The notes beneath the pieces are model-generated. The model was not told the origin of the DNA, made no database searches, and saw only the letters and a list, made by a program, of their open reading frames with translations. Positions 15,511 through 57,954 of a stretch of DNA of 64,000 bases are shown one piece after another (position 1 is the stretch's first letter; every line of letters starts with the position of its first letter). A program made the translations under genes and the position numbers. This DNA is from an uncultured Chloroflexia bacterium (GTDB lineage: Bacteria; Chloroflexota; Limnocylindria; Limnocylindrales; CSP1-4), in assembly GCA_963819655.1 (NCBI GenBank), contig CAWFXA010000003.1:192149-256148 (forward strand). Reading direction: 5' to 3'.

Positions 15511-15540
15511 TTGACATGTGACCATATGGTCACATAACAT
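15511..15540 (+). promoter_or_regulatory. sigma70-like promoter (TTGACA, 17 nt, ATAACA) with a perfect 20-bp palindrome ATGTGACCATATGGTCACAT in the spacer: candidate autoregulatory ArsR operator
   Basis: TTGACA at 15511-15516. Perfect inverted repeat at 15516-15535. A -10-like ATAACA/TAACAT follows at 15534-15540. ATG of the ArsR-family gene is at 15560. Confidence 0.5.
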
Positions 15541-15559
15541 CCGGCACGTGACGGACGAC

Positions 15560-16315
15560 ATGGCTCCGGTCTTCCGGGCACTCGGCGACGCCAATCGGCG
15601 CGTGCTGCTCGACCGGCTCTTCGAGCGCGATGGCCAGACGCTCGGCGAGCTGTGCGAGGCGTTGCCCGACATGACGCGGTTCGGAGTCATGAAGCACCTC
15701 GGGGTCCTGGAAACGGCCGGTCTGATCTCGACCCGACGCGCCGGTCGAGAGAAGCGGCACTACCTGGATCCCGTGCCGATCCGTTTCGTCCACGATCGAT
15801 GGACCGGCAAGTTCGCCGAATCGATCGTGGGCTCCATGACCGCTCTCAAGCGACACCTGGAGGCACCGATGGACACGGTCGATCACGTCTATTCCGTCTA
15901 CATCAAGGCACCCGCGGACCGCATCTGGCGCGCGATCACCGACGGCGACGAGACCGTCCGCTACTACTACGGCACGAGGGTCAGCTCGACCTGGGAGGTC
16001 GGGGCGGCGATCTCGTACACGTACCCGGATGGCAGCGTGGCCGCCGACGGATCCGTGCTCGAGATCGAGCCCGGCCGTCGCGTCGTGATGTCGTTCCACC
16101 CGCGCTGGGACCCCGACATCGAGGCGGCCGGTCCGATCAGGATGACCTGGGCGATCGAGTCCGGGGAGGGCGATGACAAGCCGTCGCGCCTGGTCGTGAC
16201 CTCAGCCCTGGTATCCGGGTCGAAGACCGAGCGCGAGTTCAGCGGCGGAGTCGTGTACATCGTGTCCGGTCTCAAGACCGCGATCGAGACGGGTGCCTCG
16301 ATGGCCGCGGCATAG
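15560..16315 (+). CDS. ArsR-family transcriptional regulator fused to SRPBCC (AHSA1-like) domain
   Basis: HTH region ALGDANRRVLLDRLFERDGQTLGELCEALPDMTRFGVMKHLGVLETAGLI followed by an SRPBCC-like domain. An in-frame GTG at 15518 or 15548 is an alternative start. Confidence 0.75.
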   Translation: MAPVFRALGDANRRVLLDRLFERDGQTLGELCEALPDMTRFGVMKHLGVLETAGLISTRRAGREKRHYLDPVPIRFVHDRWTGKFAESIVGSMTALKRHLEAPMDTVDHVYSVYIKAPADRIWRAITDGDETVRYYYGTRVSSTWEVGAAISYTYPDGSVAADGSVLEIEPGRRVVMSFHPRWDPDIEAAGPIRMTWAIESGEGDDKPSRLVVTSALVSGSKTEREFSGGVVYIVSGLKTAIETGASMAAA

Positions 16316-16553
16316 GCGTCGGAGGAGCGCCCAAGCCCGCTCGGGGTGGCGAAAAACCGGGCCGCGGGCCGTTGACGGTCCAACGACCCGGGACGATACT
16401 CGCTCGCAACATCGCCGCACCGCGGACCAGCGCGTCGAGGAGGACGCGACGGCCTCCGCGCCACCGTCATCGGACACGCTCGAGGCCTGTCCGGGCCGGA
16501 CAGGGCAGGCCCCACCAGCCCCCGCGGAGAGCGGGGAGGAGGGATGCTGCGCG

Positions 16554-17426
16554 ATGATCCCCGGTCAGTTCGACTATGTGCGTCCGGGCAACCTGGACGA
16601 AGCGCTGGCGATCCTCCGAGACCGCGAAGGCGAGGCCAAGCTCCTCTCGGGCGGCTACAGCCTGATCCCTCTCATCAAGCTCCGGCTCGCCCAGCCGGCT
16701 CTTCTCGTCGACATGCGCGACCTGACCGGGCTCGACGGCATCGTCGAGACCGACGACGAGCTTCGGATCGGGGCTCGCGCAACCCATCGCCAGATCCACG
16801 AGCACCCGGTGATGGCCCGCTATCCGATGATGCGCGAGGTGGCCGGCGGGATCGGGGACCCGCAGGTCCGCAACTGGGGCACGATCGGCGGATCCGTGGC
16901 CCACGCCGACCCAGCCAGTGACTGGCCGGCCGTCCTGCTCGCACGGCACGCCCACATCGTCTGCAGAAGTGGCAGTGGCGAGCGCACCATCCGTGCTCGC
17001 GACTTCTTCATCGACACGTTCCAGACCGCGATCGAGCCGACCGAAGTGCTCACCGAGATACGCATGAGCTCCCGCCCGAAGGGTGGCGGAGGTGCCTACA
17101 AGAAGCTCGAGCGGCGGGTCGGCGATTTCGCCACGGTGGGCGTCGCCGCAGCGGTGGTGATCGACGCCGGTGGTCGGATCGACACGGTCGGGATCGGCGT
17201 GACCGGCGTCTCGCCTTCGCCGTTCGTCGCGCTCGACGCCGAGGACATCCTGGAGGGCCAGGTGCCATCCGACGACCTCTTCCGTCGCGCGGCTGACGCG
17301 GCCGCCGCGCAAGCGGATCCCACAGCCGATGTCCGCGGGCCCATCGAGTACAAGCGCGGGATGGTCGCGGAGATGACGATCCGGGCCCTCCGGACAGCCG
17401 TCGAACGCGCCATGTCGGACGCGTAG
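16554..17426 (+). CDS. coxM: carbon monoxide dehydrogenase medium (FAD-binding) subunit
   Basis: [21 protein letters not shown] ... [16 protein letters not shown] (FAD-binding domain of molybdopterin dehydrogenases). GGAGG RBS upstream. First gene of the M-S-L order. Confidence 0.9.
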
Positions 17427-17440
17427 GGCGAGGGACGACC

Positions 17441-17989
17441 ATGAGCACCCAGCACATCACGGTAACGGTCAACGGCGAGGCCCGCGAGGCCGACGTCGAG
17501 CCCCGCTTCCTCCTGGTCCATCTCCTGCGGGACACGTTCGGGCTCACCGGTACGCATATCGGCTGCGACACGAGCAATTGCGGCGCGTGCACGGTCCACA
17601 TCGACGGCGTCAGCGCCAAGTCCTGCACGATGCTCGCGGTCCAGGCCGATGGGCGCGAGGTCAAGACCATAGAGGGCATGGCCGACGGCGCCAACCTCCA
17701 CCCGCTCCAGCAGGCGTTCTGGGACCAGCACGGCCTGCAATGCGGGTTCTGTACGCCGGGGATGATCATGCAGGCCGCCTGGCTGCTCGGCGAGAACCCC
17801 GACCCGAGCGAGGAGGAGATCCGCGAGGGGATCAGCGGCAACCTCTGCCGCTGCACCGGCTACGTGAACATCGTGAAGGCGATCCGGCAGGCGTCAGGGC
17901 AGCTCAGCACCGACGAGTCGGCGCCGGTCGTCGCCGCCGAGACCACCGAAGGCCAGGCCGTGTCGGCCGAACCGGCCGCGGCCGGTTGA
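17441..17989 (+). CDS. coxS: carbon monoxide dehydrogenase small (2x[2Fe-2S]) subunit
   Basis: [11 protein letters not shown] and [10 protein letters not shown] ... CRCTGY cysteine motifs of the two [2Fe-2S] clusters. Confidence 0.9.
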
Positions 17990-18005
17990 GTGGGGAGCAA
18001 CAAAC

Positions 18006-20387
18006 ATGACGATGACGGAACCCCGCACGACCCCCGAAGTCGGGGGTATGGGCCATTCGGTCAAGCGCAAGGAGGATCCGCGCTTCATCCGCGGCGCCGG
18101 CGAGTACATCGACGACGTCAACCTGCCAGGTCAGCTCTGGCTCGACATCGCCCGGTCGCCGTACGCGCACGCCACGATCAAGAGCATCGACACCAGCGAG
18201 GCCCTCAAGGTCCCGGGCGTGCTGGCGGTCATCACCGGGAAGGATCTCGAGGGCTACAAGCTCCACTGGATGCCGACGCTGGCCGGTGACATGCAGATGG
18301 TGCTCCCGACCGACACGGTGATGTACCAGAGCCAGGAGGTCGCCGCGGTGATCGCCACGTCCCGCTACGCCGCGGCCGACGGCGTCGAGGCGGTCCTGGT
18401 GGACTACGAGCCGTTGCCGGTCATCGTCGACCCGAAGAAGGCACTCGAGGCTGGCGCCTTCGTCCTGCGGCCCGACCGCGGTGAGGACAAGCAGAACAAC
18501 CACATCTGGCACTGGGAGTCGGGCGACGCGGCGAAGGCCGATGCGGCCCTCGCCGCCGCCGACGTCACGGTCAGCGAGGACATCTACATCCCGCGCATCC
18601 ACGTGGCGTCGATCGAGACGTGCGGCTGCGTCGCGGACTGGGATCCGGTGCGCCAGCAGCTCACCTTGCACATGACCAGCCAGGCGCCGCATGCGATCAG
18701 GACGGTCCTGGCGCTCGTGGCAGCGGGCGCTGGGTTACCGATCCTCGAACAGAACATCCGCGTGAAGACGCACGACATCGGCGGCGGATTCGGCGGCAAG
18801 GTGCCGGTCTACCCGGGCTACGTCCTCGCGGTCGCGGCCTCGTTCCTGATCGGCAAGCCCGTCAAGTGGATCGAGGACCGTTCGGAGAACCTCCAGGCCG
18901 ATTCGTTCGCCCGCGACTACCACATCCATGCCGAGATGGGCGCGACCAAGGACGGCCGCATCACCGGCCTCAAGGTCAAGACCATCGCGGATCACGGCTA
19001 CTCGGACGCGGCCGCCGACCCGAGCAAGTTCCCGGCGGGGTTGTTCAACGTGATCACGGGCTCGTACGACTTCGACGACGCGTTCGTCGAGGTCGATGGC
19101 GTCTACACGAACAAGCCGCCGGGCGGCGTCGCCTACCGCTGCTCGTTCCGGGTGACCGAGGCCGTCCACGCCATCGAGCGCATGGTCGACATCCTCGCGC
19201 ACGAGATCGGCAAGGATCCAGCCCAGCTGCGGATGGAGAACTTCATCCGCAAGGACCAGTTCCCGTACAAGACACCGACCGGCTGGGAGTACGACTCCGG
19301 CGATTACGCGCCGGCGCTCCAGAAGGCCATGGACATGATCGATTACGCCGGCCTCCGCAAGGAGCAGGCCGAGAAGCGCGACCGCGGTGAGCTGATGGGC
19401 ATCGGCATCAGCAGCTTCACCGAGATCGTGGGTGCCGGCCCATCGCACGACTTCGACATCCTCGGGCTAAAGATGTTCGACTCGTGCGAGATCCGGGTCC
19501 ACCCGACCGGCAAGGTCCTCGCGCGGATCGGCGTCCAGACGCAGGGCCAGGGCCACGAGACGACGTTCGCCCAGATCATCGCTGAGGAGTTGGGCTTCCC
19601 GGTCGGCGACATCAAGATCGAGTACGGCGACACCGACACGGCGCCGTACGGGCTCGGCACGTACGCCTCGCGGTCAACGCCCGTCGCCGGCGCGGCAACG
19701 GCGATGGCGTCGCGCAAGATCCGCGACAAGGCGCGCAAGCTTGCGGCGCACCTCCTCGAGGCGTCCGAGGACGACCTCGAGTGGGAGCCCGGCAAGTTCA
19801 GCGTCAAGGGCTCGCCGGACCGCTTCACGACCATCCAGGACATCGCCTTCGCCGCCTACACGAATCATCCCGCCGGGATGGAGGCCGGTCTGGAGGCGGT
19901 CGACTATTACGACCCACCCAACCTGACGTTCCCGTTCGGAAGCTACATCTGCGTCGTCGACATCGACAACGGCACGGGGCAGGTCAACATCCGGCGGTTC
20001 GTCGCGGTCGACGACTGCGGCAACATCATCAACCCGATGATCGTCGACGGCCAGATCCATGGCGGGCTGACGATGGGCCTCGCGCCGGCGTTGTATGAGG
20101 AGATCACGTACGACGAGCTCGGCAACAACATGGCCGGCACGTTCATGGACTATCTCATCCCGACGGCCGTCGAGACGCCCGCCTGGGAGCTCGAGAAGAC
20201 CGTGACCCCATCGCCACACCACCCGATCGGCGCCAAGGGCGTGGGGGAATCGGCCACGGTCGGCGCCCCGCCGGCCATCGCCAACGCCGTCGTCGACGCT
20301 CTGTGGCACCTCGGTGTGCGCAACATCGACATTCCGATCACTCCCCAGAAAGTATGGGCGATCCTGCACGAGAAGGGCATCAGCTGA
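18006..20387 (+). CDS. coxL: carbon monoxide dehydrogenase large (molybdopterin) subunit, form I
   Basis: 793 aa of the aldehyde oxidase/xanthine dehydrogenase molybdopterin-binding family. Active-site loop GGVAYRCSFRVTE (AYXCSFR) is diagnostic of form I CODH. Confidence 0.9.
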   Translation: MTMTEPRTTPEVGGMGHSVKRKEDPRFIRGAGEYIDDVNLPGQLWLDIARSPYAHATIKSIDTSEALKVPGVLAVITGKDLEGYKLHWMPTLAGDMQMVLPTDTVMYQSQEVAAVIATSRYAAADGVEAVLVDYEPLPVIVDPKKALEAGAFVLRPDRGEDKQNNHIWHWESGDAAKADAALAAADVTVSEDIYIPRIHVASIETCGCVADWDPVRQQLTLHMTSQAPHAIRTVLALVAAGAGLPILEQNIRVKTHDIGGGFGGKVPVYPGYVLAVAASFLIGKPVKWIEDRSENLQADSFARDYHIHAEMGATKDGRITGLKVKTIADHGYSDAAADPSKFPAGLFNVITGSYDFDDAFVEVDGVYTNKPPGGVAYRCSFRVTEAVHAIERMVDILAHEIGKDPAQLRMENFIRKDQFPYKTPTGWEYDSGDYAPALQKAMDMIDYAGLRKEQAEKRDRGELMGIGISSFTEIVGAGPSHDFDILGLKMFDSCEIRVHPTGKVLARIGVQTQGQGHETTFAQIIAEELGFPVGDIKIEYGDTDTAPYGLGTYASRSTPVAGAATAMASRKIRDKARKLAAHLLEASEDDLEWEPGKFSVKGSPDRFTTIQDIAFAAYTNHPAGMEAGLEAVDYYDPPNLTFPFGSYICVVDIDNGTGQVNIRRFVAVDDCGNIINPMIVDGQIHGGLTMGLAPALYEEITYDELGNNMAGTFMDYLIPTAVETPAWELEKTVTPSPHHPIGAKGVGESATVGAPPAIANAVVDALWHLGVRNIDIPITPQKVWAILHEKGIS

Positions 20388-21418
20388 CGTCGATCTTCGC
20401 GCGCGCCGCCGAGCTGGAAGGATCCGGCCGACCATTCGCGGTCGCCACGGTGGTGGCAGTCCGGCGCCCGACCTCGGCGCGCCCGGGCGCGAGCGGCATC
20501 GTCCACCCGGACGGGACCATCGAGGGCTGGGTCGGCGGCAGTTGCGCGCAGCCCGTCGTGGTTCGCGAGGCCCTGCGCGCGATCGGCGACGGCCAGCCGC
20601 GGCTGCTCCGGCTGTCTCGTGACGGTCCGGCCGAAGGCCGCCGCGCCGACGGCGTCATCGAGCTTGTCATGACCTGTCATTCGGGGGGCACGCTGGAGAT
20701 CTACGTGGAACCGCACCTTCCCGCCGCGCATCTCTGGATCGTCGGGACGACGCCGATCGCAGGGGCACTCGCGGCGATCGGATCGGCCGCCGGGTGGCAG
20801 ATCACCGTCATCGATCCGATCGCCGACGCCGACGCGTTCCCGGGAGCGCGTGTTCAGCGCTCGGCGGATATCCGCGGTCTCGACCCGGAGGTCGCGCCCT
20901 ACGTGGTCGTTGCCAGCCAGGGGATCTGGGACGAGGAGGCAGTGGCGCTGGCGCTCACCCGTGAGTCGGCCTACGTCGGGCTCGTCGCCTCACCGACCCG
21001 GGCCGCCGTCGTGCGCGACTGGCTGCGCGAGGAGACGACGGTCGGCGACGAGCGGATCGCGGCGCTTCGAGCGCCGGCCGGCCTCGATATCGGTGCCGAG
21101 ACCCCCGAGGAGGTCGCGCTGTCGATCCTGGCCGAGCTCGTCCAGGTTCGTCGCGGCCGGGCCGATTTCGTCGCCTCGCCTGGTCCGGCCACCGTGGCGG
21201 GCGCGCTTCCGGAGTCGATCACACTGGAACCCGTCGTCGACGACATCGTGCTCGTCGACCCCGTCTGCGGGATGACGGTCGAGGCCGCCCATGCACGGCA
21301 CCTGGCTGAGCACGACGGTATCGTCTATGCGTTCTGCTCGATCGGGTGCCGGACCCGATTCATCCGCGAGCCCGCGACCTACCTGAACGCGAGCGAGTAC
21401 TCCCCGATGCACGACTGA
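20354..21418 (+). CDS. XdhC/CoxI-family maturation factor with C-terminal YHS (TRASH-like) metal-binding domain
   Basis: XdhC N-domain GRPFAVATVVAVRRPTSARPGASGIVHPDGTIEGWVGGSCAQ and Rossmann domain HLWIVGTTPIAGALA. C-terminus VDPVCGMTVE ... YAFCSIGCRTRF is a YHS-type Cys motif. Overlaps the coxL 3' end. The start could alternatively be 20303. Confidence 0.75.
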   Translation: MGDPAREGHQLTSIFARAAELEGSGRPFAVATVVAVRRPTSARPGASGIVHPDGTIEGWVGGSCAQPVVVREALRAIGDGQPRLLRLSRDGPAEGRRADGVIELVMTCHSGGTLEIYVEPHLPAAHLWIVGTTPIAGALAAIGSAAGWQITVIDPIADADAFPGARVQRSADIRGLDPEVAPYVVVASQGIWDEEAVALALTRESAYVGLVASPTRAAVVRDWLREETTVGDERIAALRAPAGLDIGAETPEEVALSILAELVQVRRGRADFVASPGPATVAGALPESITLEPVVDDIVLVDPVCGMTVEAAHARHLAEHDGIVYAFCSIGCRTRFIREPATYLNASEYSPMHD

Positions 21419-21442
21419 CCGACCTGGCCACGGGAGGATCCG

Positions 21443-21898
21443 ATGCATTTCGAGGGCACTGTCCAGATCGCCGCACCGCGCGACCGCGTCTGGGCGTTCG
21501 TCACCGACCCGAATCAGGTCGGCCAGTGCGGTCCAGGCGTCGAATCGATCGACGTCGTCGACGACACGCACTTCAAGGCAAAGGCCAAGGTCGGGGTTGG
21601 CTTCATCAGCACTCGATTCGTGGTGAACATGGAGTTCGCCGAAATGACCGCGCCAGACGCGGCCACCATCAAGGCGCATGGGCAGGCGCCCGGCAGTGCC
21701 GTCGACGCGACAGCGCAGATGCGGCTGGCGGACGGCGATGCCGGTGGCACCACGATGGAGTGGTCCGCCGACGTCAACATCTCTGGCACGATCGCAAGCG
21801 TTGGCGCTCGGCTCATCGAGGGGACGGCGGACAAGATGATCGGCCAGACCTTCGATTGCATGAAGGCCAAGCTCGAAGGCGGCGAATCCTCGGGCTGA
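21443..21898 (+). CDS. coxG: carbon monoxide dehydrogenase subunit G (SRPBCC family)
   Basis: MHFEGTVQIAAPRDRVWAFVTDPNQVGQCGPGVESI is a typical CoxG N-terminus. Confidence 0.8.
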   Translation: MHFEGTVQIAAPRDRVWAFVTDPNQVGQCGPGVESIDVVDDTHFKAKAKVGVGFISTRFVVNMEFAEMTAPDAATIKAHGQAPGSAVDATAQMRLADGDAGGTTMEWSADVNISGTIASVGARLIEGTADKMIGQTFDCMKAKLEGGESSG

Positions 21899-27725: not shown

Positions 27726-28349
27726 TCACGGTCCTCCAGGTCGACGTGGCCGCCGTGGGCGGATGGCGCGTCGGACGATCGAGCGCGGTTTCGCTGCGCC
27801 GGATGCCGCACGTCGCTCGACGACCTTGAAGGCTGCTCGCTCGAACATGGCGAGCGTGCCGCGGAATGCGTCCCCCGCGGGGATCCGCTCGCCGGCGGGG
27901 ATATCGACCGGATAGGCCTCGAGCGTCGTGGCCCCGTGATCACGGGCGTAGTCGACGCCGGCATCCAGCAGCGCCCGCGCGACCCCGCGCCCGCGTGACT
28001 GACGACCGACGACGAAGCAGACGATCGACCAGACGGGCTTGTCGTCGAGCGGAGCGAGGACCTTGGAGTGCGCGAGCCGCTCGTAGTCCTCGCGCGGACC
28101 GATGCTGATCCAGCCGACCGCCTCGGTGCCGTCGTAGGCCACCAGACCGGGGGCGCGACCCTCATCGGCCGTCTCGGCGACGGCAGCCTCCATGACCGAC
28201 CGATGTCTGGCCTTGCCACCGCTGGAGAAGTCGAACCCACGGATCCGGAAGTAGGCGCACCAGCACCACTTCGGGTCGCCACCCTGCTCGAAGAGTGACG
28301 CGAGGTCCGGGAGGCGATCGGGAGTGAGGGGCCGGATGTCGATAGCCAT
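27726..28349 (-). CDS. GNAT family N-acetyltransferase
   Basis: Acetyl-CoA binding motif VVGRQSRGRGVARALLDAGVDYARDHGA. Confidence 0.7.
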   Translation of the reverse strand: MAIDIRPLTPDRLPDLASLFEQGGDPKWCWCAYFRIRGFDFSSGGKARHRSVMEAAVAETADEGRAPGLVAYDGTEAVGWISIGPREDYERLAHSKVLAPLDDKPVWSIVCFVVGRQSRGRGVARALLDAGVDYARDHGATTLEAYPVDIPAGERIPAGDAFRGTLAMFERAAFKVVERRAASGAAKPRSIVRRAIRPRRPRRPGGP

Positions 28350-28520
28350 CTTGGCGATCGTACGTGCTGAGGTGACCGCGGTCCGTCATGAACCCGTGCC
28401 GGCCGTGGTTTGGTGCCGCATTGGGTCACCTCATGACCATTCCGGAGAACGAGCGCTTTGATCGACGGCCGTCGGGGCCTCGTCGGGTCACCCGACGACA
28501 CATCCGACGCTCGAGCGCTG

Positions 28521-28614
28521 GCTCAGGCCTCGATACGGTCACGGGGTGACACATCAGGCCGTCGAGCGGCCCCCATCCTCTGCTCAGGTTCCGATACGGT
28601 CACCGGGTGACACA
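28521..28614. promoter_or_regulatory. tandem ~33-bp direct repeat, each copy carrying a 13-bp palindrome GTCAC-N3-GTGAC (candidate paired operator)
   Basis: Copy 1 at 28521-28553 (palindrome GTCACGGGGTGAC, 28538-28550). Copy 2 at 28582-28614 (GTCACCGGGTGAC, 28599-28611). Centre-to-centre spacing is 61 bp. Copy 2 overlaps the first in-frame start of the downstream ATPase ORF. Confidence 0.45.
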
Positions 28615-29617
28615 GGGCCCGCCCGGTGCAGCCGCCAGGTCCCGCCACGCCCGTTTGACGCTCCTCGGACCCCGGCCGTACGCTCCGCCCGTGGCCGAGA
28701 CCTCGCCGGGGCGGGGCCGGTGGACCATCCGCCACGTCCCACCGACGCCGCGCTCGATCGTCGAGCTGATCCGTGCCGGCACGCTCGATGCGGAGCTGGC
28801 GGCGACCCTGTGGGTCCTGATCGAGAGCCGGGTCCCGCTCGTCGTCGCGGCACGTGTCCAAGGTGCCGGCAAGACCACGCTTCTCGACGCTCTGATGGTG
28901 TTCCTCCCGCCAGGTGTGCGGACGATGGAGCTGGCCGGCGCGATGGAGACGTTCGACTGGCTCCCGCAGGCTCCGGAGCTGGGCTGGCGTCGCCCCCACG
29001 CACCGGACGCGATCGCCGCACGGGTCACCGGCCGCCAGCCCCCTGCGATCACACCCGACAACACGGTCCTCCTGATCCCTGAGCTGTCCGACCACCTGCC
29101 GTCCTACACGTGGGGCGCGGAGGCACGCATCGCGATCCGGGCGGTGGCGATCGGTTACGGGCTGGCCGCGACGATCCACGCCGACTCGCTCGACGAGGTC
29201 TTCGAGGAGCTTCGCCACCCGCCGGTGAGCCTCGGCGACGACGAGCTCTCGCGGCTCGGCGTCGTGCTCGTTGTGCGACCGGTCGGGGACGGGCTGCGCC
29301 GGGTCGCTGCCGCCCACTACGTCCGCCCGGTCGCGCGCGATGAGCACGGACACGTCCAGCGGCTCGGGCCGGCCGTACTGGCCACCTGGGACCCGAATGG
29401 CGATCGGTTCGAGCACTTCGGCTGGGGCATCATCCCCGAGCTCGCGCGGCGGGTCGAGCGGCGCCCGGGCGACTTCGAAGTCGATGTCGATCGTCGGCGC
29501 GACTACCTCGCCGGTCTTGCCGAGGCCGGCATCGTCGATGTCGATGCCGTCCGCGCTGCCATCGAAGGCTTCCGAGCCACGACCGTCGATCCTTCCAGCG
29601 TCCTCGCCACGAACTGA
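28607..29617 (+). CDS. divergent CpaF/VirB11-like (type II/IV secretion ATPase family) P-loop protein, possibly catalytically degenerate; start uncertain
   Basis: GTLDAELAATLWVLIESRVPLVVAARVQGAGKTTLLDALMVFLPPGVRTMEL matches the secretion-ATPase core. ATIHADSLDEVFEEL matches the conserved His-box. The Walker B / catalytic Glu region is atypical (LLIPELSD). No pilus or secretion genes are nearby. Alternative GTG start at 28691. Confidence 0.6.
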   Translation: MTQGPPGAAARSRHARLTLLGPRPYAPPVAETSPGRGRWTIRHVPPTPRSIVELIRAGTLDAELAATLWVLIESRVPLVVAARVQGAGKTTLLDALMVFLPPGVRTMELAGAMETFDWLPQAPELGWRRPHAPDAIAARVTGRQPPAITPDNTVLLIPELSDHLPSYTWGAEARIAIRAVAIGYGLAATIHADSLDEVFEELRHPPVSLGDDELSRLGVVLVVRPVGDGLRRVAAAHYVRPVARDEHGHVQRLGPAVLATWDPNGDRFEHFGWGIIPELARRVERRPGDFEVDVDRRRDYLAGLAEAGIVDVDAVRAAIEGFRATTVDPSSVLATN

Positions 29618-29627
29618 GGTCCCAGCG

Positions 29628-31070
29628 ATGCCGACCCCCGCGCGCCCCGCCACGATCGCCGAGCTGCGGGCCGCCGGGTGGCGCTCGCGGACCGTCAAGG
29701 AGGAGCTTCGTGCGAACCTCCTCGACCGCCTGGGCTCCGGTGACGACGTGCTACCCGGGATCGTCGGCTACGAAGACTCGGTCGTCCCCGCGATCGAGAA
29801 CGCGATCCTCGCCGGGCACGACCTGGTCTTCCTCGGCGAACGCGGCCAGGCGAAGACGCGTATGGCACGGCTGCTCGTCGGGCTGCTCGATGAATGGCTG
29901 CCGGTCGTCCGCGGTGGCGACCTGAACGACGACCCGTACGCCCCCGTCTCACCCGCGGCCCGCGCGATCATCGAGCGCGACGGCGACGACGCGCCGATCG
30001 ACTGGCTGCCACGTGACCGGCGCTATGCCGAGAAGCTGGCGACACCGGACATCACCATCGCCGACCTCATCGGCGAGGTCGATCCGATCAAGGTCGCAGA
30101 GGGTCGCTACTTGTCCGACGAGCTGACGCTTCATTACGGGCTGATCCCGCGCGCGAACAGGGGCATCGTCGCGATCAATGAGCTGCCCGACCTGGCGGAG
30201 CGGATCCAGGTCGGACTGCTGAACGTACTCGAGGAACGCGACGTCCAGATCCGTGGCTTCATCGTCCGGTTGCCGTTGGACCTGTATGTCGTCGCGAGCG
30301 CCAACCCCGAGGACTACACGTCGCGCGGCCGCATCATCACGCCGCTCAAGGATCGCCTCGGGTCGCAGATCCGGACGCACTACCCGCGCTCTCTCGACGA
30401 CGAGCTGTTGATCGTGGCGCAGGAGAAGCACCGCTTCCCGGTGGCCTCGGATCCCGATGTCGCAGCCCCGACCGTGGTCGTGCCTCCGTTCATGGAGGAG
30501 GTCGTGGCCGAGATCACGCACCTCGCCCGGCGCTCCCCGGAGATCAGCCAGCGCTCGGGTGTGTCGGTCCGGGTTTCCGTCGCGAACATGGAGGTCCTCG
30601 AGGCAGCGGCATTGAAGCGCGCGGTGCGTCTCGGCGAGGCCGTCGGTGCGCCGCGCGTCTCGGATCTCGGAGCGGTCGTCGCCTCGACCGTCGGCAAGGT
30701 CGAGCTCGAATCGGTCGGCGACGAGGCGCCCGAGGAGCGCGTCGTCGAGCGCCTCATCACGAAGGCCCTGTACGCGACGTTCAACCGGCGCGTGACCCTC
30801 GACGACCTCGACCCGATCGTCGAGGCATTCGAGGACGGCTTCATCGTCGAGACGGGCGAGCGGACGCCGTCACGCGAGTACGTGGCGTGGTTGCGTGAGG
30901 TTCCCGGGATGGATGACGCCGTGGCCGGCCTCGGCACGTTCGATGTCACCGATGGGGCCGAGGAGCCCGCGGTCGTCGCATCGGCCGTCGAGTTCCTGCT
31001 CGAAGGGCTCCACCTCGCCCGCCGGCTGAACAAGGAGCGGGTCGCGGGCGGGACGGTCTACCACCGATGA
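29628..31070 (+). CDS. ChlI/BchI-like (Mg-chelatase family) AAA+ ATPase
   Basis: GIVGYEDSVVPAIENAILAGHDLVFLGERGQAKTRMARLLVGLLDEWLP parallels the BchI motif IVGQEEMK ... GDRGTGKST ... LLP. Walker B GIVAINELPD. GAGG RBS before ATG at 29628. Confidence 0.75.
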   Translation: MPTPARPATIAELRAAGWRSRTVKEELRANLLDRLGSGDDVLPGIVGYEDSVVPAIENAILAGHDLVFLGERGQAKTRMARLLVGLLDEWLPVVRGGDLNDDPYAPVSPAARAIIERDGDDAPIDWLPRDRRYAEKLATPDITIADLIGEVDPIKVAEGRYLSDELTLHYGLIPRANRGIVAINELPDLAERIQVGLLNVLEERDVQIRGFIVRLPLDLYVVASANPEDYTSRGRIITPLKDRLGSQIRTHYPRSLDDELLIVAQEKHRFPVASDPDVAAPTVVVPPFMEEVVAEITHLARRSPEISQRSGVSVRVSVANMEVLEAAALKRAVRLGEAVGAPRVSDLGAVVASTVGKVELESVGDEAPEERVVERLITKALYATFNRRVTLDDLDPIVEAFEDGFIVETGERTPSREYVAWLREVPGMDDAVAGLGTFDVTDGAEEPAVVASAVEFLLEGLHLARRLNKERVAGGTVYHR

Positions 31071-31119
31071 TCGGTTCAGGGATCCGGGCGCTGCCGGTCC
31101 CACTCCCAGGCGCGCGCGC

Positions 31120-31360
31120 TGACCGACGGTCAACGTTGATGTCCGGCACCTTGGAGCGCGCTGACCGTGGGTCAACGTACCGGTCGCAAACGGCTGCCGA
31201 CGGGCGCCTGGCGACGTCTACGTTGCCCGTCGGTAACCAAGGGTCCGCGATGACGGGCCCCCAGAGCGTCACTGCGCCCCTTCGTGCCAAGATCGTTGAC
31301 CCTGGGTCAGCGCGGCGACGGTCCATGGCGTTGTTGCCCAAGATCGTTGACCGTGGGTCA
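31120..31360. repeat. four copies of a 13-bp palindrome TGACC-N3-GGTCA in two direct-repeat pairs within the intergenic spacer
   Basis: TGACCGACGGTCA at 31120-31132 and TGACCGTGGGTCA at 31162-31174, both in gcgcgcTGACC..GGTCAacgt context. TGACCCTGGGTCA at 31297-31309 and TGACCGTGGGTCA at 31348-31360, both in ccaagatcgtTGACC..GGTCAgcgcgg context. Confidence 0.45.
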
Positions 31361-31380
31361 GCGCGGGACGGGCCGTCGTC

Positions 31381-33481
31381 GTGACCGCCTACTCGCCCGA
31401 CCCGCGTGACCTCGCCGGGCGCGTCCCGGTGCCACCTGAAGCGGACGGGACGCTGGCCGGTCGCGCGCGATACTCGCGCTGGGACGGCACGCAGCGTCTG
31501 CCCGACCTCGAGGCTGACGAGATCCTCAAGGCGCTGTCCGACGACGTCATGGCGGAGGGAGATCTGGCCGAGGCGCTGCGCCGGCTGATGGACCGCGGTT
31601 GGCGGAGCGGCGATCCGACCCGCCCGGACATGCCCGGCCTCCAGGATCTGATGGAACGTCTGGCGCGCCGTCGCGAGGAGCTGCGCGAGCGGTACGACCT
31701 CGGCGACGTCCTAGGCGACATTCGGCACGAGCTCGAGGAGATCGTGGCCGACGAGCGATCGGGCGTGGAGCGGCGCCTGGAGCGGGCCGCGGAAGACGCG
31801 CCCGATGCGGACACCGCGCGCGTGGCGCAGGACCTCGCCGCTCGGCGCCTGGACCGTCTCGATGCACTCCCGCCCGACCTCGGCGAGCGGATCCGCGACC
31901 TGCGTGAGTACGACTTCCTCGAGCAGGACGCACGCCAGCGCTTCGACGAGCTCGTCGAGCGGCTGAGCAAGCAAGTCCTCGACCAGTTCGCGCAGGGGAT
32001 GAGCGACGCCATCCGCTCGATGACGCCGGAGGACCTCAGCGCGAATCGCGAGATGGTCCGCGACCTCAACGACCTCATCCGCCAGAGGATCGGTGGGCAG
32101 GACCCGGACGTCCGCGACTTCCTCGCGAAGCACGGGCGGTTCTTTCCTGGCGCCCAGACCTTCGACGACATCATCGACCAGCTGGCGCAGCGGATGGCCG
32201 CGATGCAGTCGCTCATGCGCTCGCTCAGCCCGGAGCAGCGCGCCGAGCTCGAATCGATGATGGAAGCGCTCTTACGCGACGACCGCCTCGTGATCGACCT
32301 CGCGCAGCTCGCCTCGAACCTCGATCTGCTGCTCCCCGGCGGGCTCGGCGATCGCGTGCGTTTCAGCGGCGATGAGTCGCTGTCGCTCGATGGCGCCCTC
32401 TCCCAGATCGCCCGGATGCAGGCCATGGAGCGCCTCGAGGATTCACTCATGGACGTCGAAGCACCCGGCGATCTCGCCGCGATCGACCGCGACGACGTCC
32501 GCGAGCTCATGGGCGACGACGCCGCCCGCGAGCTCGACGCCCTCGATGACCTCGCCCGGCGCCTGGAGGAAGCCGGCTACCTGACGCGCGACGGCGAGCG
32601 GCTCGAGCTGACCCCGCGCGGGACGCGGAAGATCGGCCAGCAGGTCCTCGACGACCTGTTCGCCCGCCTCGCAGCGCGACGCATTCGGCGGTCACCGCAT
32701 CGATCGGCAGGGGCGGGGCGGCGAGCGTGAGGAGACCACGAAGCCGTACGAGTTCGGGGATCCATTCCACCTGGACCTGCGCGGCACGCTGTCCAACGCC
32801 ATGGTCCGCGAGGAGAACGCGCCGGCGGCGCGAGCCGCCCGCGGCGAGCGCGGTGTCAGGCTGATACCGGACGATTTCGAGGTCTATCGCACCGAGCAGC
32901 TCACCAGCACCGCGACCGTCCTGCTCGTCGACATGAGCCGCTCGATGCTTCTGCGCGGCTGTTTCCTGGCGGCCAAGAAGGTCGCGATCGCCCTCGACAC
33001 GCTGATCCGGACGCAGTACCCGCGCGACCACCTGTCGGTCATCGGCTTCGCGTATTACGCGCGGGAGATCCGGCCGGGCGCCCTGGCCGAGCTGACCTGG
33101 CACGGCTATGAGTACGGCACCAACCTCCAGCACGGGCTGATGCTCGCCCGTCGGATCCTGGCGCGGCAGGCCGCTTCGAACCGCGAGATCGTGGTGATCA
33201 CGGACGGTGAGCCAACCGCCCACTTCGAAGGCGGCCAGGTCGAGTTCAGCTACCCACCGACCCGGCGCACCATCAGCGAGACCCTCCGCGAGGTGCAGCG
33301 CTGCACGAAGGAGGGCATCACGATCAACACGTTCATGCTCGAGCGGTCGCGCGCCCTGGCCGAGTTCGTCGCCCACATGACGAAGCTCAACCGCGGTCGG
33401 GCGTTCTACGCGACGCCGGAACGCCTCGGTGAGTACGTGCTGGTCGACTTCGTCGGACGGCGCTCGAAGCGGGTGTCGTAG
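31381..33481 (+). CDS. VWA-domain protein with long N-terminal acidic/coiled-coil region (ChlD/CobT-like partner of the ChlI-like ATPase); +1 frame break near 32665-32680
   Basis: The 449-aa N-terminal ORF (GTG at 31381) has a helical, D/E/R-rich composition. The second frame carries the MIDAS motifs VLLVDMSRSM ... VVITDGEPTA. The frames join through ...DLFARLA | RDAFGGHRIDRQGRGGEREETTKPYEFGDPFHLDLRGT. Confidence 0.75.
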
Positions 33482-33543
33482 GGCGTATCCTCCCGCGGGA
33501 CGCGGCTGATCCGGGGGGCGAGTCGCGCTGAGGGAGGGTCGTC

Positions 33544-34026
33544 GTGGACTTCACAAGCTTCTTGCCGTGGTTGCTGTTCTTGCACGTTCTCGGGGCGATC
33601 GTGGCCTTCGGGCCGACGTTCGCCTTCTCGATCATCGGGGCGATGGGCGGCAAGGAGCCGCAGCACGCGAACTTCGCGACGCGGGTATCGGCAAGGATCT
33701 CGGATCGGCTCGTCGTGCCGCTGGCTATCTTCCAGGGAGTGACCGGCGTCCTCATCATCCTGATCAGCGGCCGGGATCTCCTTGCGTCGCGATGGCTCCT
33801 GCTCGCGATCGTGCTGTATGCGATCGCGCTGGGCTTCTCGCTGTTCGTCCAGCGAAAGAATGTCCAGCGGATCATCGACCTGACGTCCGCGCCGCCACCG
33901 CCCGGGGCGACAGGCCCTCCACCGGGGCTGCCCGAGGTGGTGGCGAGGGTCCAGCGTGGCGGGATGTTCACCGGCGCGCTGATCGTCGTGATCGTGTTCC
34001 TGATGGTGGTCAAGCCGGCGTTCTAG
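33544..34026 (+). CDS. DUF2269-like integral membrane protein
   Basis: 160 aa with four predicted TM helices. N-terminus MDFTSFLPWLLFLHVLGAIVAFGPTFAF. Confidence 0.55.
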   Translation: MDFTSFLPWLLFLHVLGAIVAFGPTFAFSIIGAMGGKEPQHANFATRVSARISDRLVVPLAIFQGVTGVLIILISGRDLLASRWLLLAIVLYAIALGFSLFVQRKNVQRIIDLTSAPPPPGATGPPPGLPEVVARVQRGGMFTGALIVVIVFLMVVKPAF

Positions 34027-47329: not shown

Positions 47330-47710
47330 GTTCGTTCGCACTCCTGGCGTGGGGGCCGCGTCGGGGCCGCACGGTCCAAGCGGTCGGGTCGTCTCCTCGC
47401 GGCTCGCGCTCCTCCGCCGCGAAGCCGGTCCTGGCTCTCTCGCCCGAAACTGGGATAGGCGGGCCGGGAGGCCAGATGCGGCCGAGGATATGGGCGGATC
47501 GCTCAGGGTGTCAAGGACGCGGGAAACGAGGGTTCGTGCTCGCGGGCCGTGCGAGATTCGTCGCGCGGCGTGCTGACGGATGCGGGGTTCGCAGCGTCGG
47601 CCGCGAGTGCATCGCGGCACGCACCGCCGAAACTCCCGCGCGGGCTCTCCCCGCAGGCAGGGTACGATGTATTCCGACACTTCCCGTGACAGAACGAGGC
47701 CGACCGTCGC

Positions 47711-48790
47711 ATGACCACAATCACCGAAGGAGCCGTCCTCGAGGCACTCCGCGCCGTGCAGGAGCCGGAGCTCGGGCGCGACATCGTGACCCTCGAGATG
47801 GTCAAGTCGATCGCGATCGAAGACTCCCGCGTCGCATTCACGATCGAGCTGACGACGCCCGCCTGCCCCCTGAAGGACGAGATCGAGCAGAACGCGCGCT
47901 CGGTCCTGACCGACATCGGCGCGAGCGACATCCAGATCACGTGGGGGGCGATGGTCCGCCGCGCCTCGCCGCGCCAGGCCGAGCAGCTCGTGCCGGGCGT
48001 CAAGAACATCGTCGCGGTGGCGTCAGGCAAGGGCGGCGTCGGCAAATCGACGGTCAGCGTCAACCTCGCGGTCGCGCTCGCGCAGGCCGGGGCCACGGTC
48101 GGCCTCCTCGATGCCGACATCACAGGCCCCAACATCCCGCAGATGCTCGGCGTGGAGGGTCAGCCCAAGGCCAGCCCGAACAACAAGATCACGCCGCTCG
48201 AGCGCTACGGCGTCAAGACGATCTCGATCCAGTTCTTCGTGCCCGAGGGCCAGCCCATCGTGTGGCGCGGCCCGCTCGTGGGCGGCGCGATCCAGCAGTT
48301 CCTGCGTGACGTCGAATGGGGCGACCTCGACTACCTCGTCATCGATCTGCCGCCGGGCACATCTGACGCCCAGCTCACGCTGGCCCAGGCCGTGCCGATC
48401 TCCGGCGCAGTCCTGGTCACGACCCCGCAGGAGGTCAGCCTGAGCGACGTCACAAAGGCGCTTGCGATGTTCCAGCGCATGAACGTGCCCGTCCTGGGCG
48501 TCGTCGAGAACATGACCGCGTTCGCGTGTCCGCACTGCGGCGAGCTCACTGAGATCTTCGGGCGGGGCGGCGGCGAGCGCTTCGCGGCCAAGCACGGCCT
48601 CGACTACCTTGGCGGCGTGCCGCTCGATATCACGGTCCGCCAGGGTGGCGATGTCGGCGTCCCGGCGGTCGCCCAGCGGGAGCCCGGACCTGCCGCCCGC
48701 GCGTTGACGCTGGTGGCGCAGACCGTCGCCGCGCGGATGAGCGTGCGCGCCGCGACGGCCGAGGCACGCCCGCTCGTCACGATCTCCTGA
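47711..48790 (+). CDS. apbC: Mrp/ApbC-family Fe-S cluster carrier ATPase with N-terminal DUF59 domain
   Basis: Deviant Walker A VASGKGGVGKSTVSVNL and CPHCGE cluster-ligating motif. Confidence 0.85.
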   Translation: MTTITEGAVLEALRAVQEPELGRDIVTLEMVKSIAIEDSRVAFTIELTTPACPLKDEIEQNARSVLTDIGASDIQITWGAMVRRASPRQAEQLVPGVKNIVAVASGKGGVGKSTVSVNLAVALAQAGATVGLLDADITGPNIPQMLGVEGQPKASPNNKITPLERYGVKTISIQFFVPEGQPIVWRGPLVGGAIQQFLRDVEWGDLDYLVIDLPPGTSDAQLTLAQAVPISGAVLVTTPQEVSLSDVTKALAMFQRMNVPVLGVVENMTAFACPHCGELTEIFGRGGGERFAAKHGLDYLGGVPLDITVRQGGDVGVPAVAQREPGPAARALTLVAQTVAARMSVRAATAEARPLVTIS

Positions 48791-48808
48791 GGGGCCGAGG
48801 CTGACGGC

Positions 48809-51019
48809 ATGCGTTGTCCGTCGTGCGGGGTCGCGGCAGGGGACGACGCAAGGTACTGCGCGCAATGCGGGAATCCGATCGAGCGATCGGACGCCCCGAG
48901 CGGTGACGGCGATGGCACGGCAGGGCGGACCACACCAGGGCCGCCGGGCGCGCTGAGCCCGCTATCGACGACGTCGGGAGACCGACGGATCGTCACCGCC
49001 CTCTTCGCCGACCTGGTCGACTACGTGCGCATGCTCGCCGAGCACGATCCCGAAGTGGTGCGAGCGCGGGTGACGGTGGCGCTCGGCACGATGGCAGCGG
49101 CCGTCGAGCGCTTCGAGGGGACGCGCGAGAAATTCATCGGCGATGCGCTCTTCGCCGTCTTCGGCTGGCCGCGGGCACACGACGACGACGCGGTCCGTGC
49201 CTCGCTGGCCGCCCTCGCCATCCGCACCGGGCTGCAGGACCTCGGCATGGGCGGTGAGCCGATGGACGTCCGGATCGGTCTCGCGACCGGTGAGGTCGTG
49301 GCCGCCGCGGCGGCGCCGCTGGACGGTGACCTGCGTCTGACCGGCGAGGCCATCACGACGGCGGCGCGGATCCAGTCGATGGCCCGACCGGGCGAGATCC
49401 TGCTCGACGATGCCACCAGACAGGCAGCGCGGGGCAGGCTGGCCACCGACACGCGTGGAGAGGTCGTCCTCCGCGGCCAGTCGACCGCCATCGAGCTGCA
49501 CGCGCTCCGCGGCGAGGCGGGCATGAGCGCGTGGCTCCCGTACCGCGCCGCGTCGCCGGGTCCGCTCGTCGGGCGCGAGGATGAGCTTGCGACGATCGCG
49601 GCTGCGCTCGAACGAACGCGGCGGACCGGCCACGGTGTCGCGCTCGTCATCGAGGGCGAGGCCGGGATGGGCAAGTCGCGCCTCCTGACGGCCGTCGAGG
49701 CCGCCGCCCGCGACGTGGGCTTTGCGTGGACGTGGACCGAGAACGTGTCCTACGGCCGCGGCGAGCCGTACCGCTGGGCTCGCCTGTTCGCCCAGGTCAT
49801 CGCCGACGAGCACGGCGTCGATTCGGGCTCGCTCGTGCGCCGTTTCATCTTCACGGACGACCTGTCGCCCGAGACCGTCAGGCGCTTCGGCGGGGCGATC
49901 GCCGCGATCGCCCGCGATGCCGCGTTCTCCGGCTGGGAGGCGGAGTCCGCCGACGTGCCCGCGGACCCGGCCGAGGTGAACGCCACGTTGGCCGAGGTCG
50001 CCGCGCGCTACGTCGATCGGCTGTTCGAATCGACAGGGCCCCGTGTGATCGTGATCGACGACCTGCACTGGCTCGATCCATCGAGCGTCGGGCTGGTCGA
50101 CCTCGTCGTGGAGAGAACCGTGGACCACCCGGTCCTTATCCTCGCGGCGACCCGCCCCGGGCCACTCCCCGGCTGGGCGACACGCGACTCGACCACCCGA
50201 GTGCGGCTCAACGGCCTGGCCGAGCCCGATACGGCCCGGCTGGCCACCCTCGTCGCTCGGGCGGCGGTCGATGCTGAAGGAGTCCGCAGCATCCACGAAC
50301 GGACCGGCGGGAACCCGCTCTTCGTCGGCGAGACCGTGCGCGCCTTCCTCCAGGACGGCACGCTTCAATGGCGGGACGGCCGGCTGGCATTGATCGGGAG
50401 CGGCGGGTCGCGTATCCCCGTGACCCTGCGGGCCGTGCTGGGCGCGCGTATCGATGCGATGCCATCTGCCGCTCGCGAAGCGCTCGGCGTCGCGTCGATC
50501 ATCGGGATCACGTTTCGGCCATCCCTCGTCGAGGAGTTGCTCGACCATCCGCTCGAGCAGGGAGCGTTCGATCTGCTCGCCGAGAGCGCGTTGATCGCGC
50601 CGATCGATGACGACCATTGGCGATTCGCTCACGCGCTCATCCACGACGCCGCGTACGCGGGGCTCCTGGCCAGTCGGCGACGCACGCTCCACACTCGACT
50701 GGCCGATCGGCTCGAACGTCGCGGGGGGGTGCCGGCTACGGGTCAGATCGCTGCCCACCGCGTGGCAGCGGGCGACGCACCGCGAGCGATTCCGCTGCTG
50801 CGCGAAGCGGGCGAGAGCGCGCTCGCGTTGGGTGCCGTCGCGGAGGCGGCGGCCTATTGGCAGCAGGCGGCCGACCTCGCAGCGAGCGACGACCCGGACG
50901 GCGCCGCGCGGGATCGGCTGCGGGCGAGCGAGGCCGTTGAAGCATCGAGCTTGCTCCGCGACGCGACAGCGGCGTCCTCGGCTACTGCCCCATCGGCCGC
51001 GGGTCCCGCCCCGATCTAG
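48809..51019 (+). CDS. zinc-ribbon / class III adenylyl-guanylyl cyclase / AAA ATPase multidomain signalling protein
   Basis: N-terminal CPSCG..CAQCG zinc ribbon. Cyclase domain RIVTALFADLVDYV ... FIGDALFAVFG. AAA P-loop LVIEGEAGMGKSRLL. Helical repeat-like C-terminus. Confidence 0.75.
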   Translation: MRCPSCGVAAGDDARYCAQCGNPIERSDAPSGDGDGTAGRTTPGPPGALSPLSTTSGDRRIVTALFADLVDYVRMLAEHDPEVVRARVTVALGTMAAAVERFEGTREKFIGDALFAVFGWPRAHDDDAVRASLAALAIRTGLQDLGMGGEPMDVRIGLATGEVVAAAAAPLDGDLRLTGEAITTAARIQSMARPGEILLDDATRQAARGRLATDTRGEVVLRGQSTAIELHALRGEAGMSAWLPYRAASPGPLVGREDELATIAAALERTRRTGHGVALVIEGEAGMGKSRLLTAVEAAARDVGFAWTWTENVSYGRGEPYRWARLFAQVIADEHGVDSGSLVRRFIFTDDLSPETVRRFGGAIAAIARDAAFSGWEAESADVPADPAEVNATLAEVAARYVDRLFESTGPRVIVIDDLHWLDPSSVGLVDLVVERTVDHPVLILAATRPGPLPGWATRDSTTRVRLNGLAEPDTARLATLVARAAVDAEGVRSIHERTGGNPLFVGETVRAFLQDGTLQWRDGRLALIGSGGSRIPVTLRAVLGARIDAMPSAAREALGVASIIGITFRPSLVEELLDHPLEQGAFDLLAESALIAPIDDDHWRFAHALIHDAAYAGLLASRRRTLHTRLADRLERRGGVPATGQIAAHRVAAGDAPRAIPLLREAGESALALGAVAEAAAYWQQAADLAASDDPDGAARDRLRASEAVEASSLLRDATAASSATAPSAAGPAPI

Positions 51020-51048
51020 CGCCTTCTCGCCACCTGTCCGGCCCGCGT

Positions 51049-51915: not shown

Positions 51916-51981
51916 GGCGGCATGCTAGAAGGCCGCGTTGCAGGGGTGTGTCGCCATTCGGACACGTTTACCATCGGCCAC

Positions 51982-57261: not shown

Positions 57262-57954
<693 letters not shown>

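Follow-up and report, generated by a model that had tools for sequence, protein, structure and literature searches.

A Rv0958/Rv0959-type AAA+ and VWA gene pair preceded by a truncated FlaI/GspE-type NTPase gene in an uncultured Chloroflexota bacterium

Three co-oriented genes in a Limnocylindria locus

The stretch of DNA analysed here (the window) comprises 64 kb of contig CAWFXA010000003.1 with ~70% G+C and comes, judging by related loci, from an uncultured soil Chloroflexota bacterium of the class Limnocylindria. When genes were called by third-position GC, the interval 28607–33481 was found to hold three co-oriented genes with coding-type codon bias, designated g1, g2 and g3. By sequence, g2 is the Chloroflexota orthologue of actinobacterial Rv0958 and g3 that of Rv0959; the pair belongs to a family that is widespread in Actinomycetota and Chloroflexota. 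The original prediction had treated this AAA+/VWA pair as an orphan and had grouped it with g1, a secretion-ATPase-fold protein, into a three-gene module; the genes, their common orientation and the domain calls were borne out, and what had been overlooked are a frameshift in g3 and a spacer between g2 and g3. The closest related locus, L001, shares 94–97% protein identity with the window. The genes are arranged as follows.

28691–29617, plus strand: g1, 308 amino acids (aa), a FlaI/GspE-type P-loop NTPase with the C-terminal ATPase domain only
29628–31070, plus strand: g2, 480 aa, a ChlI-clade AAA+ ATPase, the Rv0958-type partner
31381–33481, plus strand: g3, a helical N-terminus followed by a VWA domain with an intact metal-ion-dependent adhesion site (MIDAS)
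31381–32669, plus strand: 5' part of g3, codons 1–429, an acidic all-helical domain of the Mb0984_helical type and a winged-helix-like unit
32671–33481, plus strand: 3' part of g3, codons 430–699, a Gly-rich loop and the VWA domain

Only 10 nucleotides (nt) separate the stop of g1 from the start of g2, and a GAGG precedes the g2 ATG. For g1, the GTG at 28691 was preferred over the earlier predicted start at 28607, as it yields a protein of 308 aa, the length most common among homologues.

The g2–g3 pair and its family

In tblastn searches of annotated replicons, g2 was 61% identical to its counterpart in Thermomicrobium roseum and 49–52% identical to those of Nocardia, Nonomuraea and Tsukamurella, each time followed by a VWA gene. 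Over 98–99% of its length, g2 is 48–62% identical to AAA+ proteins encoded immediately 5' of a VWA gene in Thermomicrobium, Sphaerobacter, Tsukamurella, Nocardia, Nonomuraea and Kocuria, and g3 aligns end to end with the VWA proteins of Tsukamurella, Nocardia and Nonomuraea. Relatives of g3 were also found in Thermorudis, Sphaerobacter, Nocardioides, Kocuria, Brachybacterium, Dactylosporangium and Actinoplanes. The domains of g3 were assigned through the precomputed Pfam domains of its orthologues: those that are 83–98% identical to g3, once its frame is repaired, carry Mb0984_helical (PF27532), VWA_2 and Rv0959_3rd (PF27098). The family is tied to Rv0959 because the Pfam domains of these relatives are Mb0984_helical and Rv0959_3rd. 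The Tsukamurella pair lies downstream of purN-purH, which is also the arrangement of Rv0956–Rv0959 in M. tuberculosis.

Context and numbering of Rv0958 come in part from a study in which Rv0958/MSMEG_5512 is listed as 'magnesium chelatase' (PMC7092591). There, MSMEG_5512 was recovered in an RNA-polymerase-directed pull-down, and its FLAG-tagged form had no detectable association with DNA (PMC7092591). Both MSMEG_5512 and MSMEG_5511 are among the interactors of ClpC1 (PMC10433963). The Rv0958/Rv0959-type family is already catalogued and is functionally uncharacterised, which agrees with the original prediction as far as function is concerned. The pair is present in M. tuberculosis and strongly conserved, and it is routinely mislabelled as 'magnesium chelatase' or 'sigma-54-interacting regulator'. 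In Nonomuraea gerenzanensis (L080, 6387–7178), an open reading frame (ORF) of 263 aa with coding-type bias and no Pfam match lies between the AAA+ and the VWA gene. A 286-aa gene upstream of the Tsukamurella pair was considered as a relative of g1 and rejected, as it encodes an HTH_67 protein.

The motifs of an AAA+ ATPase can be followed along g2:

29835–29858, plus strand: Walker A, GERGQAKT
30168–30191, plus strand: Walker B, VAINELPD, with Asn for Asp, invariant in the family
30294–30314, plus strand: sensor 1
30348–30362, plus strand: Arg finger
30546–30572, plus strand: sensor 2

No member of the family alignment departs from the Walker A Lys, the Walker B Glu, the Asn of sensor 1, the Arg finger, the Arg of sensor 2 or the atypical NELPD of Walker B. 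The second Walker A Gly distinguishes Chloroflexota g2 (GQAKT) from the actinobacterial proteins (GQGKT). The protein ends in a C-terminal extension of ~150 aa, and its identity is 82–97% within the class and ~50% to Actinobacteria. As a single sequence, g2 gives weak matches to Pfam AAA_5 (28.9 bits, cut-off 22), Mg_chelatase and Sigma54_activat and to NCBIfam BchD, BchI and Cob-chelatase, with AAA_3 at 19.3 bits (cut-off 27); alone against the PDB, it gives marginal matches to bacterial enhancer-binding proteins and MCM. A profile built from eight g2-family members finds ChlI 8osf (2e-10) and BchI 1g8p (1e-9) in the PDB, followed by LonB, and ranks ChlI/BchI and LonB above MoxR proteins. On these profile matches, we place g2 in the ChlI clade of AAA+ proteins, in line with the original prediction of a ChlI-like AAA+ ATPase.

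With ChlI, BchI and BchD as the closest database relatives of g2, the pair could represent subunits I and D of a chelatase for magnesium or cobalt, with the H/CobN subunit encoded elsewhere in the genome. The VWA region of g3 also weakly matches TIGR02442, 'putative cobaltochelatase' (1e-9), and annotators name Rv0958 'magnesium chelatase' (PMC7092591, PMC11237697). The chelatase NCBIfam scores, however, are 27–37 bits against cut-offs of 467–779: g2 reaches 27.3 bits with the BchI-ChlI equivalog TIGR02030 (cut-off 466.95), and g3 reaches 37 bits with TIGR02442 (779) and 17 with PRK13406 (571) and does not match TIGR02031. Moreover, g3 has a helical Mb0984-type N-terminus where ChlD/BchD carry an AAA-like domain. 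The 64-kb window contains no ORF longer than ~840 aa, hence none of CobN/ChlH size, and no CobN/ChlH gene or CobN domain, and no tetrapyrrole genes occur in it or in the neighbourhoods inspected. We regard a chelatase as improbable, and the genes are not simply cobST or bchID, the identity that the original prediction had named as its possible refutation.

RefSeq names g2 a 'sigma 54-interacting transcriptional regulator', and Pfam Sigma54_activat matches it weakly (24 bits). As a sigma-54-dependent activator, g2 would be expected neither to prefer ChlI/BchI in profile searches nor to lack a GAFTGA-like loop (no G[AS]F[TS]G[AG] motif) and any DNA-binding or helix-turn-helix domain in the Pfam scan, and FLAG-tagged MSMEG_5512 showed no DNA association (PMC7092591). 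We give this reading almost no credence, and the RefSeq name is a misnomer because the GAFTGA loop is missing.

The features of g3 are the following:

32566–32637, plus strand: winged-helix-like unit, residues ~379–432, with a weak HemN_C match
32670, plus strand: a single additional C, not present in L001, L002 and L003, that puts g3 out of frame from codon 430
32687–32767, plus strand: Gly-rich loop GGHRIDRQGRGGEREETTKPYEFGDPF, residues 436–462, of low model confidence and strongly conserved
32930–32944, plus strand: DxSxS of the MIDAS
33113–33130, plus strand: Thr of the MIDAS
33197–33217, plus strand: Asp of the MIDAS

In the window, g3 is not the single open frame that had been predicted. 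The frame that begins at GTG 31381, which aligns with the ATG of L001, stops at 32730, and the VWA domain lies in another frame. Where L001, L002 and L003 read CGCCT-GCAG the window reads CGCCTCGCAG, and in blastn comparisons with these three loci the C at 32670 is the sole uncompensated indel in the g3 coding sequence. Its removal gives a g3 of 699 aa; database orthologues are almost all 699–702 aa long, and every listed one is intact (643–714 aa). Because the part downstream of the extra C is still 97–98% identical to its orthologues, the change is either an inactivating mutation of very recent date or an error of sequencing or assembly. Programmed frameshifting at 32670 was considered and rejected: the base does not occur in L001, L002 or L003, the listed orthologues are intact, and the site has neither a homopolymer nor a slippery sequence.

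The structure of g3 was taken from the AlphaFold2 (AF2) model of a 98%-identical protein, P0121, with a mean predicted local distance difference test (pLDDT) of 76.7. In this model, residues 45–400 are all-helical, with a net charge of −35, and the N-terminus contains no P-loop fold, which upholds the earlier description of a VWA protein with an acidic N-terminus and no AAA domain. Where that description had a coiled coil, the model has a helical domain and a winged-helix-like unit. The MIDAS residues D517, S519, S521, T580 and D608 are invariant over 45 g3-family sequences from two phyla. The best structural matches of the model are the VWA domain of NorD in cryo-electron microscopy structures of NorQD complexes and the MIDAS domain of Rea1, both of them AAA+-coupled VWA domains. 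The helical domain found no match in a structural search of the PDB, and the g3 sequence or profile matched only BatB VWA domains there, weakly.

The FlaI/GspE-type protein g1 and its linkage to the pair

In HMMER searches of the PDB, g1 matches Archaeoglobus GspE (2oap, 5e-11) and Sulfolobus FlaI (4ii7, 1.8e-10). The matches are confined to the C-terminal ATPase domain (residues ~216–417 of 2oap/4ii7), with residue ~3–10 of g1 aligning with residue ~216–218 of 2oap and FlaI. An AF2 model of g1 built from 45 sequences (pLDDT 90.4, predicted template-modelling score 0.89) was compared by Foldseek, which ranks 2oap first (E = 1.5e-16, query template-modelling (TM) score TMq = 0.67), then FlaI (~1e-15), and after these CpaF (3e-9), PilB, PilT, VirB11 and DotB. 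The entire protein superposes on the C-terminal domain of 2oap/FlaI and leaves half of the target unmatched (target TM 0.41). Because both the PDB matches and Foldseek cover only this domain, g1 is, by sequence and model, an N-domain-less FlaI/GspE-type protein with a RecA-like ATPase fold; it is devoid of the ~215-aa N-terminal domain that pairs with the C-terminal domain in secretion-ATPase hexamers. The secretion-ATPase fold had been correctly predicted. No Pfam family passes its threshold on g1, with no T2SSE match at E ≤ 0.01, and the NCBIfam scores are 64 bits for FlaI NF058587 (cut-off 550) and 28 for TIGR03819 (cut-off 373). The motifs of g1 are:

28862–28879, plus strand: Walker A, GAGKTT, with its first Gly replaced
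29078–29116, plus strand: PELSDHLPSYTWG in place of Walker B, holding the Glu of PELSDH
29168–29185, plus strand: His box, TIHA, with the second His kept and the first replaced
29297–29428, plus strand: family-specific C-terminal signature

The Asp box (ED) is lost, and an insert of eight residues creates the family signature (N/P)E(L/I)SDHLPxYxWG. Conservation in the family peaks towards the C-terminus, at about residues 203–254. Of 73 g1 loci, 68 retain GK[ST], the Walker B-position Glu and the second His; in the exceptions L050, L056, L061 and L064, the Lys, the Glu and the His have disappeared jointly. This joint loss argues for a real NTPase site, predicted to consist of these three residues, that was abandoned in a few lineages. 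The g1 family can thus be described as relatives of secretion ATPases, reduced to the C-terminal domain, whose catalytic residues vanish together in some lineages. Among 1.84 billion cluster representatives, 1527 relatives were found at E ≤ 1e-3 and 102 at E ≤ 1e-30, mostly of 260–310 aa; the named ones are all Chloroflexota, from Limnocylindria, Thermomicrobiales or Dehalococcoidia.

In spite of its fold, g1 is not a secretion motor. Pilus, secretion and archaellum genes (ArlJ, ArlH, archaellin) are absent from the 64-kb window, as had been noted before for pilus and secretion genes, and because such partner genes are not present nearby the locus is not a secretion, pilus or archaellum system. 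Archaeal-type FlaI genes and archaellum clusters exist in Chloroflexota (PMC12488501), and these clusters may explain the archaeal flavour of g1.

In Limnocylindria, g1 stands directly before g2 in 69 of 70 loci. Synteny there extends to the flanking GNAT, ABC-transporter, DUF2269 and aldolase genes, and this adjacency therefore says little alone. The same trio order recurs in T. roseum (TRD_RS11475/80/85) and in Thermomicrobiaceae CFH 74404, where the flanks differ from those of the window, with citrate synthase upstream and lipoate ligase downstream. Scanning metagenomes with a T. roseum-type g1 alignment yielded 80 further loci, and all 161 g1-bearing loci were pooled into 26 clusters (single linkage, 60% identity), 22 of them informative. 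The clusters do not represent independent events in evolution. Among the informative ones, g2 is no more than 600 nt downstream of g1 in 13 and 1–5 kb downstream in three, and it is absent from six. In the linked clusters, identity relative to T. roseum falls to ~34% for g1 and ~48% for g3.

These data also bear on the possibility that g1 is independent, a stand-alone Chloroflexota P-loop protein sharing an ancestral neighbourhood or promoter with a system that consists of g2 and g3 only. Unlinked g1-like genes do occur in Dehalococcoidia and other Chloroflexota (L073, L074, L078, L079 and cluster 3), some adjoining a LON_substr_bdg protein and a HAD hydrolase; Actinobacteria and Sphaerobacter have the pair and no g1 beside it; the gap between g1 and g2 reaches ~220 nt in L083; and in two Limnocylindria-type loci (L056, 8001–9386; L086, 5890–7500) g2 and g3 were lost and g1 was kept beside DUF2269. 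Against independence, the order g1-g2-g3 is kept across g1 lineages that are 34–50% identical and between classes with differing flanks, gaps of 4–30 nt between g1 and g2 are common, and g1 is degenerate in both pair-less syntenic loci, with the Walker A Lys, the Glu and the His all replaced. We judge independence of g1 unlikely, though it is an alternative to be taken seriously. Linkage of g1 with the pair is widespread and probably functional; it is not universal, and it does not depend strictly on catalysis by g1. The claim that g1 belongs with the pair thus stands in so far as the linkage extends beyond this genome, and fails in so far as g1 is dispensable in Actinobacteria and unlinked in several lineages. 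To our knowledge, a conserved association of the pair with an NTPase that has only the C-terminal domain of FlaI has not been described in Chloroflexota.

In L073 (5333–6813) and L135 (5272–6786), an unlinked g1-like gene directly follows a stand-alone LON_substr_bdg protein gene and faces a HAD hydrolase gene. The neighbour with the Lon N-domain hints at a protein-quality-control context for relatives of g1.

Across 70 genomes, housekeeping genes keep a stable order around the locus, which speaks against the defence-type module that the original prediction had listed among its candidates. Ternary conflict systems of vWA and AAA+ proteins exist (PMC7159879), and the trio, with two NTPases and no obvious client, might be an anti-phage or conflict NTPase module like the vWA-MoxR ones. 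PADLOC, however, returned only chance-level P-loop matches (E = 0.001–0.005), g2 and g3 are 81–98% conserved within the class and ~50% identical to Actinobacteria, the trio has no effector domains, and g2 resembles ChlI more than MoxR. A role in conflict is highly improbable.

Two non-coding regions of the locus contain repeats:

28521–28614, no strand assigned: region between g1 and a divergent GNAT gene, with two 33-nt direct repeats
31120–31360, no strand assigned: element in the g2–g3 spacer, with four TGACC-N3-GGTCA palindromes inside the 310-nt non-coding gap 31071–31380

The boxes of the spacer, at 31120, 31162, 31297 and 31348, form two nested inverted repeats (two boxes and two inverted ones). 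Against the four found, 0.07 were expected, and the palindrome occurs nowhere else in the window. The boxes are conserved at the same place in L001, L003, L004, L043 and L167, and the gap between g2 and g3 is 4–80 nt in most other lineages. The RNA fold of the spacer has a z-score of −3.3, and an ORF over it (31067–31384) has non-coding codon bias. For the spacer, we consider three possibilities: operator array, structured RNA or small inserted element. Upstream of g1, each 33-nt repeat holds one GTCAC-N3-GTGAC palindrome (28538–28550 and 28599–28611), the region overlaps the alternative GTG at 28607, and the palindrome also occurs 5' of g1 in L001, L008 and L009; by its sequence, this region is a candidate operator or promoter. 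Rfam, promoter and terminator scans of 28300–33700 returned nothing meaningful.

Elsewhere, the window contains a separate canonical MoxR/VWA pair ~20 kb upstream, an AAA_5 CoxD-like gene (4874–5800) and a VWA_CoxE gene within 7426–9390, which is clearly distinct from g2–g3. Alongside it (11191–12651 and 15515–21898) are genes for a MobA-like transferase, CoxG, and the FAD and molybdopterin subunits of an enzyme of the CO-dehydrogenase/xanthine-dehydrogenase type. Further genes in the window are ordinary housekeeping ones: an Mrp/NUBPL-type Fe-S P-loop NTPase (47690–48790), adenylate cyclase-AAA_16 and cNMP-binding/Crp regulators (48791–52680), trigger factor-ClpP-ClpX (55594–59284) and FtsZ (59722–60984).

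Proposed function and comparison with known systems

Taken together, we consider it somewhat better than an even bet that g2 and g3, as an AAA+/VWA pair orthologous to Rv0958/Rv0959, form a remodelling machine with g1 as a lineage-specific accessory NTPase. Direct support for this proposal comes from homology, domain architecture, and the conservation of motifs and gene order; from these and from related systems we infer ring formation, finger insertion, remodelling activity, the client's identity and physical contact of g1 with g2/g3. On the model of NorQ/NorD, CbbQ/CbbO, CobS/CobT and ChlI/ChlD, g2 would form a ring on which the VWA domain of g3 would dock. The conserved and flexible Gly-rich loop (residues 436–462) that precedes the VWA domain is a candidate for a finger inserted into the pore, the MIDAS may capture an acidic residue of the client, and the acidic helical domain with the winged-helix-like unit may provide client specificity. 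ATP hydrolysis would then remodel the client, for example in cofactor or metal insertion or in complex assembly. These steps are modelled on published AAA+/VWA pairs (PMC13036017, PMC9976466, PMC4660213, bioRxiv 10.64898/2026.07.21.739949). In NorQD, the pore takes up a finger of the VWA domain, and hydrolysis of ATP produces a twist in the NorD linker that permits metal insertion (PMC13036017); in CobST, the ring receives a shaft from the adaptor, and CobN attaches to CobT on its far side (bioRxiv 10.64898/2026.07.21.739949); and vWA domains generally capture a client peptide for the AAA+ partner (PMC7159879). Where g1 lies directly upstream, as in many Chloroflexota lineages, it is probably co-transcribed with the pair, and its most likely role would be that of a nucleotide-dependent accessory, as partner or regulator of g2–g3, or that of their client.

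Several observations weigh against this proposal. In the window itself, g3 is frameshifted and separated from g2 by the 310-nt spacer. The putative ATPase g2 has Asn for the Walker B Asp and, in Chloroflexota, Ala for the second Walker A Gly. In Actinobacteria, the pair occurs with no g1 (a Nonomuraea record of 11.85 Mb contains g2 and no g1 match at E ≤ 1e-3), and Sphaerobacter has it without an adjacent g1. Conversely, the six unlinked g1 lineages, several from Dehalococcoidia and other Chloroflexota, occur in varied contexts. The g1 proteins of the trio loci L050, L061, L064 and L085 have no P-loop, so that the trio does not always need g1 to bind ATP; in L085, a gap of only 4 nt separates this P-loop-less g1 from g2. 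No taxonomy is attached to the metagenome loci, and the clusters, as stated, are not independent events. Finally, the literature on Rv0958/Rv0959 and MSMEG_5511/5512 consists of proteomic or screen listings, among which we found no functional study.

A stronger claim, which we find doubtful, is that the trio is a hitherto undescribed three-component dual-NTPase machine of Chloroflexota in which the N-domain-less FlaI-type ATPase works physically with the ChlI-type ring and the Rv0959-type adaptor. In such a machine, the pair could, for instance, put together or reset an oligomer of g1, or delivery of the client could be gated by g1; if this is true, actinobacterial Rv0958/Rv0959 would be a reduced two-component form of the same machine. 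As an accessory to the remodelling pair or as an integral part, the truncated FlaI-type NTPase that is repeatedly attached to it in Chloroflexota offers a concrete third partner, with the trio available in the cultured T. roseum, and g1 could help to show which client the whole family acts on and by what mechanism.

Of the known systems, ChlI/BchI with ChlD/BchD and CobS/CobT resemble the pair in combining a ChlI-clade AAA+ motor with a VWA/MIDAS adaptor, and they include the nearest solved relatives of g2 by profile. They differ in the AAA-like N-domain of their D subunit, which g3 does not have, in family scores that g2 and g3 miss, and in the company of H/CobN and tetrapyrrole genes, none of which lie near g2 and g3. 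NorQ/NorD, CbbQ/CbbO, RavA/ViaA and CoxD/CoxE have an adaptor built, like g3, of a long N-terminal region and a C-terminal VWA domain with a MIDAS, and NorD in NorQD complexes has the closest fold to the VWA model of g3. The working principle proposed for such MoxR/VWA pairs is client remodelling or metal insertion (PMC13036017, PMC9976466, PMC4660213, PMC10585395). However, g2 is ChlI-like and has ~480 aa where MoxR proteins have ~270–300 aa, and no client gene is evident at the trio. The FlaI/ArlI and GspE-type ATPases (4ii7, 4ihq, 2oap) share with g1 the P-loop, the Glu at the catalytic position, the second His of the His box and a superposable C-terminal domain, whereas the ~215-aa N-terminal domain, the Asp box and the ArlJ, ArlH and archaellin neighbours are missing from g1, which has gained the eight-residue insert. 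Compared with Rv0958/Rv0959 (MSMEG_5512/MSMEG_5511), the g3 of the window is frameshifted by its extra C and split from g2 by the palindromic spacer, Chloroflexota g2 has GQAKT for the actinobacterial GQGKT, and Chloroflexota often have upstream of the pair a g1 that Actinobacteria lack. Common to both are an AAA+ gene followed by a VWA gene, an AAA+ protein (48–53% identity between g2 and its actinobacterial counterparts) with the same NELPD Walker B, an architecture of helical, VWA and third domains, and an invariant MIDAS.

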